Below are positions 41,718 through 59,570 of a DNA stretch of 64,000 nucleotides, one piece after another (positions within the stretch are counted from its first letter, which is position 1; each line of letters opens with the position of its first letter). The stretch comes from a virus: the IMG/VR virus record IMGVR_UViG_3300023278_003531, positions 35,631-99,630 of that record, one strand, 5' to 3'. A program made the translations under genes and the position numbers. The notes beneath the pieces were generated by a model that worked only from the letters and a program-made list of their open reading frames with translations, had not been told where the DNA came from and ran no database searches.

Positions 41718-42557
41718 CTACAGAGAGTTGAAATCCAAACCCATTCTGTAAGATTCTGCCATGAAAGTTACCTTAGAACGCCATTGATTAAGATCACTCC
41801 ATTCCTGCCTAAAACTAATAGGCTCCGCTCTTACATTTCTGAAATGAAAAAGAGCATCATCGTTTCCATTGACCTGGAGAACATCTCCGGCCCAACCAGT
41901 ATTATAAGTACCATCATAGTTGAGAGGCTCACCCTCTCTAAAGTCCATAACGGTTAAGTGTCTATTATACAAAGCATCATAAATAAACTCAGTAAGATCA
42001 TCCCGTTCAGAGCTGGAGGTAGCAAAGACATGGATGATCATGTTTCTGCGCGAGATTCTACCAGGCCCGATCTGATAAGGATCTTTCTGGTATGCACCCA
42101 TCTCCACCGCCACAATTGGACCATCTGGAGGATTAGTGCCAGGCCATCCATCAATTACAGATACGTAGTTTTGACTAAAATCAACCAGGGTAGGAACTCC
42201 GTCCGGAGTAGTAGTACCCCCACTGGCGACGAGTGCACCGTCAAGATAATTTATTGTGTAGTAGGAGCTGTCTATCACCCCTCCCACTTCGTTATATACA
42301 GTTACTCTGGTGGTTTGTTCGGTATTGGGAATCCCTGTCGTACAGAGAGAGTCCTGACCGTAAGCGTCAAAATAAACCCAACCCCGACCCTCGTCTAGAA
42401 AATTAGGGAGCCAGGTTATTGCTGCTTCAAACCGTGTCTTATCTGCGTTGTAGCTGAGGGGCGCATTAACAATGTTCTCTACCCACTTCATGGGGAGAAG
42501 AACACCCTTCAACCAGTGCTGCAACGACTGGTCTTCCATGCGGGCTAGAGTTACCAT
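41718..42557 (-). CDS. tail terminator-like protein
   Basis: GPIVAVEMG..YQIG..RRNMIIHVFATSSSERDDLTEFIYDAL; sits just before the tube gene. Confidence 0.7.
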   Translation of the reverse strand: MVTLARMEDQSLQHWLKGVLLPMKWVENIVNAPLSYNADKTRFEAAITWLPNFLDEGRGWVYFDAYGQDSLCTTGIPNTEQTTRVTVYNEVGGVIDSSYYTINYLDGALVASGGTTTPDGVPTLVDFSQNYVSVIDGWPGTNPPDGPIVAVEMGAYQKDPYQIGPGRISRRNMIIHVFATSSSERDDLTEFIYDALYNRHLTVMDFREGEPLNYDGTYNTGWAGDVLQVNGNDDALFHFRNVRAEPISFRQEWSDLNQWRSKVTFMAESYRMGLDFNSL

Positions 42558-43210
42558 TATAAACGCTTTCCCTCCCTTGCGGATTTGATTGCTTTAGTAA
42601 TGAATGGTTTTAATTTAAATTCATTAATCGCCTCGGTAAAAATATCCAAAGGAGAAAGTCCAGAAAAGGGATGCCTGACGGAAGCAAATGAGGTGAATTT
42701 ACTCCACCCCTCCCTATCGAACTCATCACGGCTAATCATAAACCCTTCCTGGAATCTACCAGGAGTAGGAGGGGAACCTCCCTTCTGGGCGTAAAGTTCA
42801 GGAGTAATAAAAGCCCACTCTCCCAACAATCCCTCTATATAGAACACCACCCAGTCGAGCGGATTAAAACTTTTAGGATCCCAATTACCATCCTCCGAAT
42901 AACCTAAAAACTCCTTTTCTCCTAAACGAACTATAAGTCCTCGATCAGTAACCAGCAAGTTGTGTTCCAGGTCTTGCTCAAGTTTTGTCTTAAATTCTGT
43001 TCTCCAATAAGCGGGGTTAGTAGGATCTTCAGGCATACCCGACATTCTAGAAGAAAGATCATCATACCCATCCATAATCATGTCAATTAGATGAGGCATA
43101 GCCTCCGTTCTAATAACCGTGACTACATTATGGTGGATGAGCTCCTGCCTCTTCTTGAGGATTCTACTTAATCCAGACGTATCTATATTTAGATTTGCCT
43201 TAAACCCCAC
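42557..43210 (-). CDS. neck/tail-completion protein
   Basis: Position in the neck cluster; C-terminal PFITKAIK resembles HK97 gp10-like ends. Confidence 0.55.
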   Translation of the reverse strand: MGFKANLNIDTSGLSRILKKRQELIHHNVVTVIRTEAMPHLIDMIMDGYDDLSSRMSGMPEDPTNPAYWRTEFKTKLEQDLEHNLLVTDRGLIVRLGEKEFLGYSEDGNWDPKSFNPLDWVVFYIEGLLGEWAFITPELYAQKGGSPPTPGRFQEGFMISRDEFDREGWSKFTSFASVRHPFSGLSPLDIFTEAINEFKLKPFITKAIKSAREGKRL

Positions 43211-47451: not shown

Positions 47452-48519
47452 TTAACTTCGGTCAATAACACCAAGCTGGGTCATTCGAGAGTCGAGAAGG
47501 GCGAACCCTACCTCTTCCCATCCGAAGAATCCCTGCTTCTGCTGTCGAAGCAAGCTCGGGTCATCGTGCGCCTCGAACTCCTTTCGTACAGGCATAACAA
47601 GCGAATCATTAACGGAGAGATCAAATCCATAGACCTGGGTCTCACCTGCAGTGGTAACGTTTCCGTTAGCATCCACGGTGTTAATGTTCGTTGGGGTGTA
47701 ATCATTGAAGTCGCCGGAACCATCTACCTGGAAGATACCATAAGAAGCGCCGTTCTGGTTGATGTTGAATCGACCAGTAGCACCAAGCTGGAATACCTCA
47801 TGTAGATTTACGTTCCAGATTCGACCCATACCAGCAGCCGTGAAAATCTCTCGGCGGGTGATCGGATCAACCTGAGTATCGGTCCACTCACGAATGTCAG
47901 CGGCGTCCTCAGGGGAAATGTATAGGTCAGTAAGGGAGCGTCGAACTCTCTTCATTCCTACCATCATCAGGTTCAGGAGCTCCTTCGAGAGGAACTTCTC
48001 ACCGGTAGATCCGGAGGGAACCTGGAAAACAGGAGCATTGCGAGCGCCAAGGAGACCCTGGCCTGCGAAGTCAGTAGTAGCACCGGGGACAATTACTCGC
48101 CATCCGGACTCCTCTTCGTAGTCTGCAATAGATCGTGCTGCGTTTCGAGCTGCTCGCTCGGGGATATCAATGCGTGAGTCGCGTGCGTAGGTTACCTTCC
48201 AATCCGCAGATACTGCGATGGAGAAAGTAGGTACGTACACTTCCTCACCAACACCCTCAACGAAGTTCTGTGCGATATATCCGAGTCCCGGAAGTACGAA
48301 TACCGGAACGTCGAAGTCGTCAGCAACTGGATATACAGCCTGTGCGCCTGGCGCCAATCGCTCAACAGCAAAGAGCTGTCGCATGATGGACGCGTCTCGA
48401 ATCTCCTGGAGAATCGGGACAGTAAGAGCCTGCGCAAAGGCTTTGTATGCTTCAACACCCTCGGGAGTGTCGATAGCTGCAGTTGCTTGGAACATTTCCT
48501 GTAGCTTTGTTCTATCCAT
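47452..48519 (-). CDS. major capsid protein (HK97 fold)
   Basis: 355 aa after scaffold and decoration genes; SIMRQLFAVERL, FSIAV..RIDI..RA..SIA.YEE, LYISPE...DIREW, C-terminal GFFGWEEVGFALLD. Confidence 0.9.
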   Translation of the reverse strand: MDRTKLQEMFQATAAIDTPEGVEAYKAFAQALTVPILQEIRDASIMRQLFAVERLAPGAQAVYPVADDFDVPVFVLPGLGYIAQNFVEGVGEEVYVPTFSIAVSADWKVTYARDSRIDIPERAARNAARSIADYEEESGWRVIVPGATTDFAGQGLLGARNAPVFQVPSGSTGEKFLSKELLNLMMVGMKRVRRSLTDLYISPEDAADIREWTDTQVDPITRREIFTAAGMGRIWNVNLHEVFQLGATGRFNINQNGASYGIFQVDGSGDFNDYTPTNINTVDANGNVTTAGETQVYGFDLSVNDSLVMPVRKEFEAHDDPSLLRQQKQGFFGWEEVGFALLDSRMTQLGVIDRS

Positions 48520-51080: not shown

Positions 51081-51296
51081 TTATTCAGACTTTCTTGTAA
51101 AAATCAGCTGATCTTTTGTTATTTTAAATTCACCAATACTCGCTACAGCCTTCGATAAGAAGACAATAGTATCTTGCCTATTAAGAAGCTCAACGGCTTG
51201 CTCAACGGCACGTTCCCGATCATCGCCGGCATCCACTATAGTAGGGCCAGATCCGACGAGTAAAAGAAAACCAGAAGCTTTCTTGCGGTCAGCCAT
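51081..51296 (-). CDS. 71-aa ORF; probable frameshift extension of the prohead protease
   Basis: No good RBS. The frame is open upstream to the A10 run (51408..51417) at the protease 3' end. Confidence 0.6.
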   Translation of the reverse strand: MADRKKASGFLLLVGSGPTIVDAGDDRERAVEQAVELLNRQDTIVFLSKAVASIGEFKITKDQLIFTRKSE

Positions 51297-51400
51297 AGGA
51301 TTTAACTCGTGAGCTTTCCTAAATGCGTCTATTTTGTGTCTGAATCTTTCGACAGAGTTGTCGGAAATTACGGAAGAAGCGTCAATTGACTGGCTGCTAA

Positions 51401-52816
51401 TTACGAATTTTTTTTTTCAGTCTCAATCACAAAATCCCTAAGAGAGTTTCGGAGAGACTGCGCCTCGTCATGAAGTCGAACAATTTGATCTTGTCGTTCC
51501 GTTAGGGGCTCTACCGATGCGTCTACTTTATTAGTAACTGCGGGCAGAACAAGATCAGTGGTAAAACTATTACCCGGTGTATTAGACAAGAATTCACGTA
51601 CGGTCTTAGTAAATGCACCAGTGTCATCGGGGTTATTGGTCATAGAGTTTTTCTGATTTCGAAGACACTCGGGAGCTTTGGCGGTAGCACCAATAACAGG
51701 GCAGTGCTCCTCGAACAGAGCACAATAATGCTCCTGAATGACAGCACCTTCGGATTGATCTAGTGCGTTGTACTTGGTCAGTCTCTTCTTGAAACTTACA
51801 CAGGTACCGTCAATATTGCTCCCCACATAACCTGGACCAGGAAGACCACCCCCACTCCAACGAGCGGCTACTTCCTTATTAGGGCTAACCGTAAGTACTC
51901 TGCTGATTCCTCCGGTCTCCTCATCAAGCTCGAGATAAAGTTTAGGGGCATCTTCGTCCGTCTGAACTGTAGAAACCTCTACTAAATTATCTGCCATTTC
52001 GACCTCCTTGTCAACCTGGGTTTCCCCTGCGGTTTCAGAAAGTACTACTTTGTGTCCTCGGAGATTATCAATCATTTCTAGATCCACAACCTGCTCTCCC
52101 TTCTCCATCTGCTCACGTCGAGCTGCTGTCTCCATGATGATAGAGTGGGGGTTTGCAGGATTCTTAACAATACCCATCCCACTAAAGGTAATATGTCGAA
52201 GAACCCGCGCGACCTGTCGGACACCCATCTCCCTATGACCCGCCATTACCTTTACAAAACCACCTACCAGCTCATCAGGATCATACCCCAACGCCTGGGC
52301 CTCGTCACGTGTGATGATAGTATTGCCGATCTTAATGTCGAAGTCTTTAAAGAAACACTCCATGCTAACCTTCCACGCGCCTGCAGAAATTTCCTCTGCA
52401 TACTCGGGGAAGCGCATCTTGTGGATAACACCTGCTACTGCAATGTCCATATCCACACCATCCAGATCCTGGGAAGCTTTTTCATAATCTGCCATAACTA
52501 CCAGAGGATCAAACTGGCTACCATCCTTATACATATAAGCACATTCATAGATATGGCCGATGACCTTATCTTCCTCATGCTCGATATCAATGGCTTTATG
52601 CACTACAGTGTTGTGTGCCTTCATCATCTCTGATGGCAAGAAATGTGCACCATTCTTGTTAGTCCCTGCCGAGACCAGACAAGAGCGCATATATTGAAGA
52701 TCCTGCTGCTTTTCATCAGGAAAAGCGAGCACGGCAGCTTTCTCCATCGCAGCCTTCTCTACCTCCTGCTCCACCTCAATGGGTGCATATACTCTAATCT
52801 TATTCTCTTCGACCAT
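51401..52816 (-). CDS. prohead protease (HK97/assemblin-like) with Cys-containing C-terminal extension
   Basis: VSAGTNKNG, IDIEH (His), WKVSMEC (Ser), FSGMGIVKNPA; lies between portal and scaffold. Confidence 0.8.
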   Translation of the reverse strand: MVEENKIRVYAPIEVEQEVEKAAMEKAAVLAFPDEKQQDLQYMRSCLVSAGTNKNGAHFLPSEMMKAHNTVVHKAIDIEHEEDKVIGHIYECAYMYKDGSQFDPLVVMADYEKASQDLDGVDMDIAVAGVIHKMRFPEYAEEISAGAWKVSMECFFKDFDIKIGNTIITRDEAQALGYDPDELVGGFVKVMAGHREMGVRQVARVLRHITFSGMGIVKNPANPHSIIMETAARREQMEKGEQVVDLEMIDNLRGHKVVLSETAGETQVDKEVEMADNLVEVSTVQTDEDAPKLYLELDEETGGISRVLTVSPNKEVAARWSGGGLPGPGYVGSNIDGTCVSFKKRLTKYNALDQSEGAVIQEHYCALFEEHCPVIGATAKAPECLRNQKNSMTNNPDDTGAFTKTVREFLSNTPGNSFTTDLVLPAVTNKVDASVEPLTERQDQIVRLHDEAQSLRNSLRDFVIETEKKNS

Positions 52817-53275: not shown

Positions 53276-53533
53276 TTATGCTTGTGATATTGGGGATTCC
53301 GGCGCGCAAAGGCCTAAGTTATTTAAAATAAATCCCTCAGGGCACTCAAGAGTGCCTACCGGTTCAGCCCCCTCCACATTAGTAATAGGGATACAAGAAC
53401 CCGATTTCGGATCAAAGACTTCCTCAGGTCTACACTGCGGATGGAACTCCTGAGGATCAGTTATCTGACTTTTGTCAGACCATCCTCTTAGGATTTTCCC
53501 AAGTTGGCCGCGATGATCTGGCGAGCATGCCAC
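53276..53533 (-). CDS. probable -1 frameshift extension of 53488..55830 carrying two more Cys repeats
   Basis: CRPEEVFDPKSGSC and CPEGFILNNLGLC; slippery G GGA AAA at 53494..53500. Confidence 0.7.
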   Translation of the reverse strand: MACSPDHRGQLGKILRGWSDKSQITDPQEFHPQCRPEEVFDPKSGSCIPITNVEGAEPVGTLECPEGFILNNLGLCAPESPISQA

Positions 53534-55847: not shown

Positions 55848-57725
55848 TTAACTAGATTTACTTGGCTTTGTTGGTTTTGTGTTTGGTTTTGTAGATTTAG
55901 CTCGGGGCTTACCCCGTCCCTTTCGAGGCCGACCCTCGCTCGGAGTTCCCGTAGGGGTTCTCTGAATGTTCTGAATATTCTTCTGCAGGGATTGGATCTG
56001 ATCTTGCATGTTTTTCTGGAAATCTTTAAGATCATCTTCTGTAACTGTAGTAGGCTTACCCCCCGGAGTACCATCGCTCGTAGGTGCAACAGCCCCGGGT
56101 GCAACCTTGGGGTTGTACGGAGATCCAATAATGCCCAGAACTCCTGCTTGAACTGCGGGCGACTCCTGGAGCATGTTAGCATACTCGTTAGAGAAGTCGA
56201 AACCAAGCTTCTCAATACCGGTTTCATAAGAAATGATTCTTCGATCAATCATACCCTGGATGACGCTCATTAACATAATCTCATCCTTCAGAGTGTTCTC
56301 ATCGAACCTAACCTTGGGATAACGATCGAAGCCCATTGCAAGTGCAACCTCTTCGTATTCGTGATCTATCCAACGTGTAACCACACGCCGGGCGTAATTA
56401 ATCTCCTCAGCAAATGCCTTAGTGGCTGCCTCTATTGCCTTTGCGTTACCTGAAACCTCACCATCAATAAGGGCCCTAGTGACTCCCATGGACTGGCTTA
56501 GATCATCATTGACTTGTTCGAATTTACTCTGTCCTAGAATATTGTCAATCTCGGGAAAGGTGATCTTCTCTACCTCCAGGGTGTGGTTCCACACGACATC
56601 AAAACTCTTACTAGAAGTATCGAACAACTGAGCGATTGCTTCTAACTGGGACTGATCAGTAACCGGATGCTCATCATTACCAATAGTTATCTTAAGAATA
56701 TAGTTTGTAATTCCATCCAAGGTGGAGAAATCTGCCTTCTTTAATTCTTCCTTGTAGCGAATATCATCCAAAGCCCTAGAAAGCTTAGGCTTGGGGTACC
56801 GCTCATAATCCTGACGTCGATAATCACACTTTCCTACCAACTCCGGTGGAAGCAGCACAGGTTTGTCCTTCTTTACCTGATCTTTAAGTTCTTTAGGTAG
56901 GCTGTTAAGAAAAGCCTTCTGCTCTTTAGTCAGCTTAGAAGTATTCTTAAGCATTTTTTTCAACTCTTTGAAAGCTTGAGGCTTAAGTAGAGTTTCTGTC
57001 TGGTTAAATAACAAAGGACCTTGGATAACTACTAATCTAGGATCTAGAATTGTGTATTGTAAGGGTATAAAAGCCTTAGACCATATTTTCTTAGCAGCGC
57101 CCCATTCCGTATGTGCTTGTAATTTCTGTAGATCAGAGGTAGTTGAGAACATATTAGCTTTGGCTACGCGCTTGATCGTCTTATCAAAATCTTCTGGCTT
57201 CAACTTAGGCGCAAACTTACCCGCAATCTTGAAGGTCCTTACAAGTCCTACTCTAAAGAAGTCAAAGAATATCTTCTCAACAGTTTCATGGAATCCAATC
57301 TCCCTAGTCCATGTATCATAAAAAAGTTTAATGGCGGGATCATCTATATCATTCTTAAAGCCCTTCGCGGCAAAGTTGGTTAGTGTGTCAATGACGGTGC
57401 CGATGTGTCCTTGAGAATGATAGGTATTAATTGCTGTATCGTAAAGCTGCTCGGGTCGTGCCTGTGTTACTTGCGGCTTACCAATAAGTAGATCAACATC
57501 TACACGTCGAAGCCAATCTCGAGAAATATTACGACCGCCCGTCCAAAACTTCATAGGATGTGGGTCTCCGTCTTTTCCTGTAAGAAACGCTAACTCCTTA
57601 ACACCCCTACCCTCGGGACCAACATCAATCTCCATGGAATGAGAACCATCACCATTATCCTCATAGGAGAGAACTTCAGCATTTTCTAGACCCGCATTAA
57701 GCTTCTCTTTAACATCGTCGGACAT
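55848..57725 (-). CDS. portal protein
   Basis: Directly after TerL; GTVIDTLTNFAAKG, YTILDP, DYRRQDYERY..P, LKITIG, VRFDE..L; basic C-terminal tail. Confidence 0.85.
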   Translation of the reverse strand: MSDDVKEKLNAGLENAEVLSYEDNGDGSHSMEIDVGPEGRGVKELAFLTGKDGDPHPMKFWTGGRNISRDWLRRVDVDLLIGKPQVTQARPEQLYDTAINTYHSQGHIGTVIDTLTNFAAKGFKNDIDDPAIKLFYDTWTREIGFHETVEKIFFDFFRVGLVRTFKIAGKFAPKLKPEDFDKTIKRVAKANMFSTTSDLQKLQAHTEWGAAKKIWSKAFIPLQYTILDPRLVVIQGPLLFNQTETLLKPQAFKELKKMLKNTSKLTKEQKAFLNSLPKELKDQVKKDKPVLLPPELVGKCDYRRQDYERYPKPKLSRALDDIRYKEELKKADFSTLDGITNYILKITIGNDEHPVTDQSQLEAIAQLFDTSSKSFDVVWNHTLEVEKITFPEIDNILGQSKFEQVNDDLSQSMGVTRALIDGEVSGNAKAIEAATKAFAEEINYARRVVTRWIDHEYEEVALAMGFDRYPKVRFDENTLKDEIMLMSVIQGMIDRRIISYETGIEKLGFDFSNEYANMLQESPAVQAGVLGIIGSPYNPKVAPGAVAPTSDGTPGGKPTTVTEDDLKDFQKNMQDQIQSLQKNIQNIQRTPTGTPSEGRPRKGRGKPRAKSTKPNTKPTKPSKSS

Positions 57726-59570
57726 TTATCTCCCCTTCTTCTTCTTCGGCTTAGGTTTCAAAACTGCGGCTCCGCTTAGACGTACCTTCTTATCGTTCCC
57801 CGCCTCTGACATAACTCTTCTCTTGAAGGCATCGGGATCACGGGCTATTTCCATCTTATCCATTATAGCCTGAGGAATAACTCCTCCAAAAGCATCTTCC
57901 ATCTCTAAGGATTCTTTATCGCGGCTTCGACCACGTACCACCCCTCCGTGGTGCATGATGTCCTCTGGCATATCCTCTGTCCAGATCAAATCATAAATAC
58001 AACGAGCTGCTAGAAAAAAAGCGGTGTAAAGATCCTTCTTCTGCTTCCCGTGACCTCCACCTTTAGGAACATCGAAATGCTGTTTTCCAGTAGGAGTCTC
58101 AGTAAGCTCGATAGATTGCATCTGGTTCTTCATATCCCTAATCGTGTGCCAAGAGTCCTCTTCAGGAATGGTACCGTCCGTTAATGCTTTCAGTTTTTCA
58201 CTCTGGGGAACCGATGGGAATAGAATGTCTCGATGCTCTAGTAACCGTAAAGCGTCGTAATTAGATTCCGCAATGAACTCAGCAGAAAAATTGCACATCG
58301 TTAGCATATCACGACCTGCTTTTAACTGGTGAACCTCATCCTCGGGATCAAGTATGGGACCTGCTGTATGGTTGGTGGGATTCTCTGCAAGAATGTCTTT
58401 GATGGCGAGGCCGCCACCCTGGGAATCCATATAGATATGGGTAACATTGAATGCTGAGCAAAGGTCTTCGATGGTTTGGGCCATCTTGGGAAAGGGTTGA
58501 TTATGAATTTCTAATGCGTGAACGACTTTAGCGGGCTGTCCAATCTCTACAACCGCAATGGCAAAAGAGTCTTCACTTCTAGCAGGATCTATACCTAAAC
58601 AATAAGACTTACCGGGAGATCCCGCAACCTGAGTTGAGAAAGATTTACTACTACATGCTTCCAACAGCGACGCTCTGTAAAAAGCATCTGTGTCGGGAAT
58701 AAAAGCAGCCTCGTATTCCATCCGGAACTCAAGGCTAGACATTTCTTTTCTTGCGGACTCAACGTTATCTTTATCGAGGAATCCGGTCTCTAGTAATTTA
58801 TACGGAACTCTAAAAGCTGCGTACTTAGGATTACCTGCACGCATCTCATCACGGTAGATCTTGTACAGATCATACATGTGATTAAAAGTGAAATAACCAG
58901 ATGATGTAATTATAATTTGGTTGGCGCTGCTGTCAGCGTCCAGCTCCTCTTGGGTGATCAACCCACGCTTAAGAAGCTCCTTCTGCCTTTTGATCCTCTC
59001 TACATTCTCCATAGGATTGGCTACGGTAGCTGCCATAGGACGAATGACCATGTTAAAAATCTCGGGTGGAATGTGGGGAAACTCATCACAAACAATAGTA
59101 AAGAAACGTGAACCACGAATCTTAGTACCGTCGCCTAGAGGTATCGCTTGTATTAACGACCCCGGCTTACCCGCCACTGACTTAAATCTAATATAACAAT
59201 TGTCTGATTGCTGGGTAGGTTTCTTCTCACACGCAGCTCGTAGGATCGGAGACCCTTGATACAAGCGCGTGCACTCATCAAAAATAAACTTAGATTGACG
59301 AAAAGTGGGTGCAATTAATCCTATCTTGTGTCCTGGATACAACATCCCTTTCAGTACAGCAAGCACAGCTTGGAGAAATGTTTTACCTGAACCACGACAC
59401 ATAATGGCGATGACGTTGCTCTTAGACCACATAGAGCGCAAGACTACTTTTTGGATTTTTGAAAGCTTGAGTCCCAATAGGTCTTCTGCTGCCATCTCGG
59501 GATATTCTCTATAGAACTCAATCAGCTCTGCTGCAGCTGATCTTAATTCCGGATCATCTTCGTTTAGCAT
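57726..59570 (-). CDS. terL: terminase large subunit
   Basis: Walker A MCRGSGKT, GLIAPTFRQS, Walker B IVCDEF, ITSSG, FRMEYEA.F, nuclease LGIDPARSED, KKDLYTA. Confidence 0.95.
   Translation of the reverse strand: MLNEDDPELRSAAAELIEFYREYPEMAAEDLLGLKLSKIQKVVLRSMWSKSNVIAIMCRGSGKTFLQAVLAVLKGMLYPGHKIGLIAPTFRQSKFIFDECTRLYQGSPILRAACEKKPTQQSDNCYIRFKSVAGKPGSLIQAIPLGDGTKIRGSRFFTIVCDEFPHIPPEIFNMVIRPMAATVANPMENVERIKRQKELLKRGLITQEELDADSSANQIIITSSGYFTFNHMYDLYKIYRDEMRAGNPKYAAFRVPYKLLETGFLDKDNVESARKEMSSLEFRMEYEAAFIPDTDAFYRASLLEACSSKSFSTQVAGSPGKSYCLGIDPARSEDSFAIAVVEIGQPAKVVHALEIHNQPFPKMAQTIEDLCSAFNVTHIYMDSQGGGLAIKDILAENPTNHTAGPILDPEDEVHQLKAGRDMLTMCNFSAEFIAESNYDALRLLEHRDILFPSVPQSEKLKALTDGTIPEEDSWHTIRDMKNQMQSIELTETPTGKQHFDVPKGGGHGKQKKDLYTAFFLAARCIYDLIWTEDMPEDIMHHGGVVRGRSRDKESLEMEDAFGGVIPQAIMDKMEIARDPDAFKRRVMSEAGNDKKVRLSGAAVLKPKPKKKKGR

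Follow-up and report, generated by a model that had tools for sequence, protein, structure and literature searches.

Phages are known to extend some of their structural proteins at the C-terminus by programmed −1 ribosomal frameshifting (−1 PRF), and the described cases include gene 10 of T7 and T3, the head protein of A2, and the coat proteins of Listeria phages (PMC5009743). In the Lactobacillus phage A2, the −1 PRF event of the major head protein is located near the end of the capsid gene (Garcia et al. 2004, PMC355979, as cited in PMC10885494). Frameshifting is also reported to append Ig-like domains to structural proteins of phages (Fraser et al. 2006, as cited in PMC5009743). The G_GG.A_AA.A and A_AA.A_AA.A heptamers are both used in −1 PRF by bacterial IS elements (PMC4066793). 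The locus described here, at the end of a 780-residue Cys-repeat gene of an uncultured phage, displays the features of a canonical frameshift cassette, namely an in-frame heptamer, a spacer in the ~5-9-nt range followed by a structure, and a conserved overlapping −1 ORF that is often devoid of a start codon. From this evidence, all of it sequence-based, we consider it very probable that the 780-residue protein is extended by a programmed −1 ribosomal frameshift at G GGA AAA.

The head module and the 780-residue protein

The window, i.e. the whole stretch of 64,000 nucleotides that was analysed, covers bases 136730-200729 of a 297,725-bp IMG/VR virus record that is rated complete. The genes of its head module described here are all encoded on the minus strand. 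The large terminase (59570..57726), assigned by PHROG terminase matches, is followed by a portal-like protein of 625 residues (57725..55848), and the Cys-repeat gene (P0001; 55830..53488, 780 residues) comes directly after the latter. Two small ORFs of 80 and 65 residues, and then a putative prohead protease of 471 residues, lie downstream of the 780-residue gene, and the major head protein (48519..47452) is found further along the module. The first-pass annotation had placed the 780-residue gene between portal and protease. The portal half of this statement holds, with an Atlas feature score of 0.97 and a TM of 0.68 to portal clusters that include Portal_Mu; the protease half comes down to a weak Peptidase_S78 lead only. 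ARAGORN analysis of the phage's own genome reports 29 tRNA genes, at both genome ends, with Lys(UUU) and Lys(CUU) present and no Gly. One tRNA outside the window (G000:C1 1116-1192) exhibits an enlarged anticodon loop with an anticodon reported as 'ttca', and may act as an opal suppressor or read a quadruplet codon.

The 780-residue protein comprises eight C-x12-C β-hairpin units, a His-rich β domain, two DUF6582-like helical units, and a Lys/Asp-rich patch. Its 79 protein homologues span 608-931 residues, and DUF6582 and partial CBM_14 matches are returned for all of them. The assignment of the Cys units to the chitin-binding CBM_14 domain was rejected: the matches cover profile positions ~27-49 of 53 only, with two Cys per unit against a six-Cys pattern, and the units also match cEGF, TIL, and DUF4215 tails in other proteins. 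Since the matches are confined to the final ~20 positions of CBM_14 and comparable Cys-rich models, the units are not chitin-binding domains in the family sense, and their residue pattern identifies them as generic two-Cys hairpins rather than CBM_14 domains.

The AlphaFold2 model of the 780-residue protein (44 sequences) is of low confidence (mean pLDDT 59, pTM 0.25) and depicts beads on a string, in which the Cys units form β hairpins, the DUF6582 units form helices, and the linkers are disordered. Foldseek analysis of this model against BFVD returned TM values of 0.04-0.09, which are meaningless, the searches of the protein against PHROGs, NCBIfam, and PDB sequences gave nothing useful, and ESM Atlas gave no usable match. 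Because these fold and family searches are uninformative, the function is deduced from position only. The position after a Mu/SPP1-type portal would fit a MuF / SPP1 gp7 protein (Phage_Mu_F), but this candidate was rejected with a Phage_Mu_F match in 0/44 family members. The place of the gene after a Mu-type portal, together with a module that the family has in common with portal/MuF-like proteins (see below), suggests a portal-proximal minor head protein.

The slippery heptamer and its conservation

The 780-residue gene ends, on the minus strand, with TTG (53502-53500) GGA AAA (53496-53494 for the Lys codon) TCC TAA (53490-53488), and its zero-frame product terminates with ...ANLGKS. The slippery heptamer G GGA AAA (53500-53494, minus strand), in the X XXY YYZ phase of the zero frame, reads exactly as the first-pass annotation had described it ahead of the stop. 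It is followed by the spacer TCCTAA (53493-53488, minus strand), 6 nt that consist of one sense codon (TCC) and the zero-frame stop TAA. The long minus-strand ORFs of the window contain 0.0037 in-frame XXXYYYZ heptamers per codon. Over the whole genome, a heptamer at most 5 codons away from the stop and followed by at least 50 open −1 codons is observed in 4 out of the 265 ORFs of at least 150 residues, and one of these four was rejected as a slip site.

Homologues were collected from IMG/VR, public metagenomes, and a protein collection, which provided the 79 proteins and 20 homologous DNA loci containing the gene end; identity amounts to 52-81% over the last 181 residues. Neither blastn nor tblastn against 50,697 GenBank phage records found a relative of the 780-residue gene, the sole matches being DUF6582 stretches of 60-70 residues in a non-structural region of Streptomyces phages. 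Conservation of both heptamer and stem in related phages had been proposed as a check on the frameshift. As regards the heptamer, it is found in the same place, in frame and ending exactly 3 nt (one codon) before the stop, in 20 out of 21 loci, window included, that stem from independent metagenome assemblies. It reads GGGAAAA in 13 loci and AAAAAAA in 7 (window counted), and the A-site position is A AAA in 20/20 of them. The phage encodes its own tRNA-Lys(UUU) and tRNA-Lys(CUU). The codons flanking the heptamer differ among loci and the sense codon of the spacer varies (TCC, GCG, TTC, GAG, AAA, among others); the spacer length and the stop position are invariant in the 20 loci. Locus L023 possesses an additional overlapping A AAA AAG, the form preferred in E. 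coli, that adjoins the stop.

At the protein level, 77 of the 79 homologues end with G-K or K-K plus one residue, and in-frame continuation into the extension is observed in none of the 79. A search of 1.84 billion representative proteins with the extension profile did not report any in-frame fusion within the 780-residue protein family; it retrieved short −1-ORF fragments, Cys-repeat proteins that are unrelated, and a small number of portal/MuF-like proteins. Only L020, a 3.9-kb contig (region 3200-3560), lacks the heptamer: its zero frame ends with ...HLLYHVMIKKRLRPR*, and it carries the conserved extension in the −1 frame with no slippery site. Its gene end resembles the result of a deletion spanning the junction, either in a defective variant or through an assembly error.

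A slip could also occur during transcription, RNA polymerase adding an A within the A run so that some mRNAs would encode the fusion directly. Polymerase slippage usually needs 9 or more A, however, and the window and 12 other loci have just four to six. The AAAAAAA-type relatives have runs of 7-8 A, and long A runs are a cause of polymerase slippage (PMC5009743, PMC4066793). Against this stand the strict heptamer frame, the fixed 6-nt spacer, and a structure with suppressed synonymous change (see below), which are features of ribosomal slippage. We judge transcriptional slippage very unlikely at this site and favor a slip of the ribosome.

The −1 frame extension

After the slip, the −1 frame reads GK|ILRGWSDK..., with a predicted junction ...AANLGK-ILRGWSD. 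The extension comprises 72 codons (ILRGWSDKSQITDPQEFHPQCRPEEVFDPKSGSCIPITNVEGAEPVGTLECPEGFILNNLGLCAPESPISQA; codons 53494..53279, minus strand) followed by a stop (53278-53276), and SQITDPQEFHPQCRPEEVFDPK is one of its tryptic peptides. The predicted long form has 779 + 72 = 851 residues, and the unshifted product 780. The −1 frame is open from 53533 to 53276: that it continues had been correctly noted, with a length of about 70 codons that is now set at exactly 72. The earlier statement that it encodes two more copies of the protein's own Cys repeat is likewise confirmed, the two units being C-x12-C and C-x11-C, as compared with eight C-x12-C in the main frame. Pfam analysis of the extension returns no match of the Ig type (I-set, FN3, BIG2), and the two short Cys hairpin units are found instead. 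An Ig-like accessory domain added by frameshift was rejected as a candidate on this lack of a Pfam Ig match; the logic is similar, but the extension is not a member of that group.

Substitutions follow the −1 frame. The pairwise differences at its codon positions 1, 2, and 3 amount to 1512, 1084, and 3212, respectively (58 ungapped codons, 15 loci), and 2081 codon differences are synonymous versus 1779 non-synonymous. The same bases read in the other two frames yield 422/3533 and 199/3641 synonymous/non-synonymous differences, with 30 and 102 stops. By this pattern of change, the −1 frame is protein-coding. Between the window and its nearest relatives, the pN/pS of the 72-codon extension is 0.13-0.20 (0.13 versus L006), and that of the last 72 main-frame codons is 0.15-0.21; as the values are equal in the two segments, the short extension is under the same purifying selection as the main protein.

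A coding −1 frame might instead be a separate small gene, translated from its own start (GTG 53533, 85 residues) or by re-initiation after the TAA. The window and the L001-like clade do have a −1-frame GTG, 43 nt ahead of the stop, at the position where the first-pass annotation had given an ATG, which is mistaken, and gene callers did call such fragments as short ORFs. However, half of the loci (10/20) offer no ATG, GTG, or TTG when the −1 frame is followed from the stop that precedes it through to 90 nt beyond the zero-frame stop, and in L006, the closest relative, this frame opens just 13 nt before the stop. Because the first −1 codon after the heptamer varies among loci (ATC, AGC, AGA, AAG, and others), no unusual start codon is conserved either. 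A separate gene would also leave a heptamer of fixed position, in two sequence forms, without reason. This explanation is highly improbable, and we retain the fusion of the −1 frame to the 780-residue protein by frameshifting.

The frame break itself might be artificial, resulting from an assembly or sequencing indel within a true, continuous 851-residue frame, or the extension might be the decaying remnant of a recently broken gene. One extra A in the run would join the frames, and this phage has the family's shortest extension, without the terminal module described below. Yet 20 independent assemblies and the 77 homologues mentioned above all have the break at the very same codon, the pN/pS of the extension between the window and L006 is as low as that of the main frame, and both the heptamer and the structure are intact. 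An error or a broken gene is scarcely credible under these circumstances, and a programmed frameshift remains the preferred reading.

RNA structure downstream of the heptamer

The two-part stem-loop described in the first-pass annotation after the 6-nt spacer is present, as is the spacer itself. This local hairpin, GAGGAT-GG-TCTGAC-AAAA-GTCAGA-TAACTG-ATCCTC (53487-53452, minus strand), consists of an outer stem (GAGGAT/ATCCTC) and an inner stem (TCTGAC/GTCAGA) closed by an AAAA loop. The 66-nt region folds at −24.4 kcal/mol (z = −3.7), 1 out of 200 dinucleotide shuffles being as good, and pairing is predicted with a probability of 0.87 in the outer and 0.99 in the inner stem. In the set of the nine closest sequences, the third-position diversity drops to 0.12 in the 12 hairpin codons; the remainder of the extension has 0.39, the 46 upstream zero-frame codons have 0.42, and the overall diversity is at its minimum from +6 to +54 nt after the heptamer.

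The first bases after the stop may also pair further downstream. In the window, GAGGATGG (53487-53480) can form 7 out of 8 pairs, with one A.G mismatch, with CCATCCGC (53444-53437, minus strand), the 3' arm of a long-range stem that lies within the F-H-P-Q codons of the extension. A stem that begins with the base immediately following the stop and has its 3' arm in the F-H-P-Q-C codons is observed in 16 out of 19 loci in two registers of unrelated sequence. Register one is GCGGATGG/CCATCCGC, with GAGGATGG in the clade of the window and GCGGGTGGAA/TTCCACCCGC in L023. Register two is GCACTGAGG/CCTCAGTGC, with GCGCTGTGGG/CCCACAGTGC in L016. The long-range stem and the local outer stem use a common 5' arm. 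In the window, both folds are nominally at −14.8 kcal/mol, with ensemble shares of 0.87 for the local and 0.12 for the long-range one.

With regard to the stem, the proposed conservation check has a mixed outcome. The local hairpin is kept in the subclade of the window and partly in L017, L023, and L025, with 85.6% of cells paired and two compensatory pairs, and it is absent in more distant relatives; the longer-range stem is the one kept across the family. No significant structure was found in L013, L015, and L019. In a pair-count shuffle control, which is lenient for related sequences, 138 out of 500 shuffles reach the observed score for the long-range stem, and 3 out of 500 for the local stem. 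RNAalifold analysis of the mixed 12-sequence alignment A2 did not find a consensus structure (−1.74 kcal/mol), which is explained by the two stem registers failing to align. Both RNA structures have thin covariation support. A putative 3' stimulator starting 6 nt after the heptamer is nonetheless a conserved feature of the family. In the window phage, it is most likely the local two-part hairpin, possibly in alternation with the long-range stem on the same 5' arm.

Proposed mechanism

The −1 PRF reading proposed in the first-pass annotation agrees with the presence of the heptamer in 20/21 loci, the absence of in-frame fusions, the frequent lack of a −1 start, the purifying selection on the extension, and the low synonymous variation over the structure. 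The slip itself is what we infer from the signal, its conservation, and the coding −1 frame. Most ribosomes would read GGA AAA TCC and terminate at the TAA, giving the 780-residue major form. A fraction of them would pause while GGA occupies the P site and AAA the A site, as the RNA structure 6 nt downstream is proposed to resist unwinding. A tandem slip back by one base to GGG AAA could then take place, tRNA-Gly on GGA re-pairing with GGG and tRNA-Lys on AAA with AAA, and decoding would continue with AUC CUA AGA, adding 72 residues that contain two more disulfide-type Cys hairpin units. The expected outcome is an 851-residue minor form beside the 780-residue major form, with the RNA signal setting the ratio of the two. 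The slip efficiency is probably low to moderate, since G_GG.A_AA.A is a weaker heptamer than G_GG.A_AA.G in E. coli (PMC4066793). We further infer a location in the head for both forms, either at the portal or close to it.

Extension modules and other candidate slip sites

The content of the extension differs within the family. In this phage and L006, it consists of nothing but Cys units, and a Lys-rich tail is found in the L001 clade. In most relatives, the extension ends with a terminal module of ~45 residues, K[ML]ERC..VK..LRK...KS.A.AIC.S.LK (L014, L016-L019, L013, L015, L023, and L025), that does not match any Pfam family. The same module constitutes the in-frame C-terminus of four proteins from other phages (P0105, P0117, P0118, and P0113; 518-822 residues), which display sub-threshold Phage_portal and Phage_Mu_F matches and a MuF-type H-x-x-C-x-C motif. 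A search of the whole genome of the window phage did not find the terminal module, and L006 is likewise devoid of it. As a consequence of this absence, the added function of the extension in this phage is less obvious.

A separate ferritin/Dps-like gene directly follows the extension in L019 (9143-9637), L023 (4565-5083), and L024 (4225-4746), and a ferritin domain is located inside the main protein of the homologue P0030 (residues 504-643). The whole genome of the window phage did not return any ferritin match.

Other gene ends of this phage also carry runs or heptamers. The putative protease gene (471 residues) ends with GAA AAA AAA AAT TCG TAA, which contains an A10 run (51417-51408; region 51081-51417, minus strand). 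A run of A9-A10, 1-3 codons before the stop, is present in 10/10 loci checked (window, L001, L006, L007, L011, L013-L015, L017, and L019), and the −1 frame continues for 106-116 conserved codons (..SIDASSV..VERFRHKIDAFKKAQ..TKDQLILTRK). This A10 site would represent a second conserved recoding site of the head module, for which transcriptional slippage is a serious alternative given the 9-10 A. A GGGAAAG heptamer, two codons before the stop of a 217-residue ORF (43210..42557; 42557-42575, minus strand) and followed by 282 open −1 codons, was rejected as a slip site. It lies within the AGGGAGG Shine-Dalgarno of the following gene, whose own ATG is part of a TAATG overlap, and these two features make it a case of ordinary translational coupling. 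Outside the window, an ORF of 235 residues (G000:C1 232693-233400, minus strand) exhibits an in-frame AAAGGGG three codons before its stop, followed by 128 open −1 codons.

A broader role can be put forward only tentatively. The slip site might be a conserved 'joint' where C-terminal modules are swapped on a carrier protein next to the portal in this clade of ~300-kb phages, and which, together with the A10 slip, might set the proportions of head-assembly proteins; we regard this as a possible, though rather doubtful, reading. If it were true, a fixed small fraction of the copies would bring a cargo or anchoring module into the capsid.

Comparison with known systems

The long product predicted here escapes gene callers. 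All 79 homologues are annotated to end at the stop, and the extension appears as orphan fragments or falls in unannotated space. Recognizing the putative slip would correct the proteome throughout a clade of uncultured ~300-kb phages. The family also offers a natural series, with two heptamer types, two stem registers, and a fixed 6-nt spacer that contains the stop, which could show how bacterial frameshift stimulators evolve.

The T7 10A/10B pair, gene 10 of T3, and the A2 head gene resemble this locus in that a −1 slip near the stop of a head gene yields a minor, C-terminally extended form beside the major one, the long form being a prediction in the present case. Two differences are apparent. 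The extension is an accessory fold in T3 and A2, whereas here it is made of the protein's own two-Cys units and has no Ig-like domain. In T7, T3, and A2, the gene concerned is that of the capsid, whereas here it is a 780-residue DUF6582/Cys-repeat gene by the portal, and the major capsid protein is encoded elsewhere (48519..47452).

The lambda G/GT system (Levin, Hendrix and Casjens 1993; Xu et al. 2004, both as cited in PMC5009743) uses G GGA AAG, as compared with G GGA AAA here. The two systems are alike in the location of the site at the 3' end of the upstream frame, in its conserved position among divergent relatives, and in the logic of a fixed short/long ratio. They differ in that lambda G/GT belongs to the tail module and to another protein family, and in that a downstream RNA structure is apparently selected here. 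The role of lambda GT in tail assembly cannot be transferred to the long form of the 780-residue protein. The IS3/IS1 transposase frameshifts (A AAA AAG/A, G GGA AAA; PMC4066793) share the heptamer classes, an early zero-frame stop, and a downstream stem-loop or pseudoknot stimulator. They serve the fusion of transposase domains, which is unrelated biology to the extension of a structural protein proposed here.

The −1 PRF mechanism is therefore not new in itself; it is the gene family and the content of the extension that differ from the known cases, and this locus would add a firmly conserved −1 PRF example outside the tail-chaperone and major-capsid genes.
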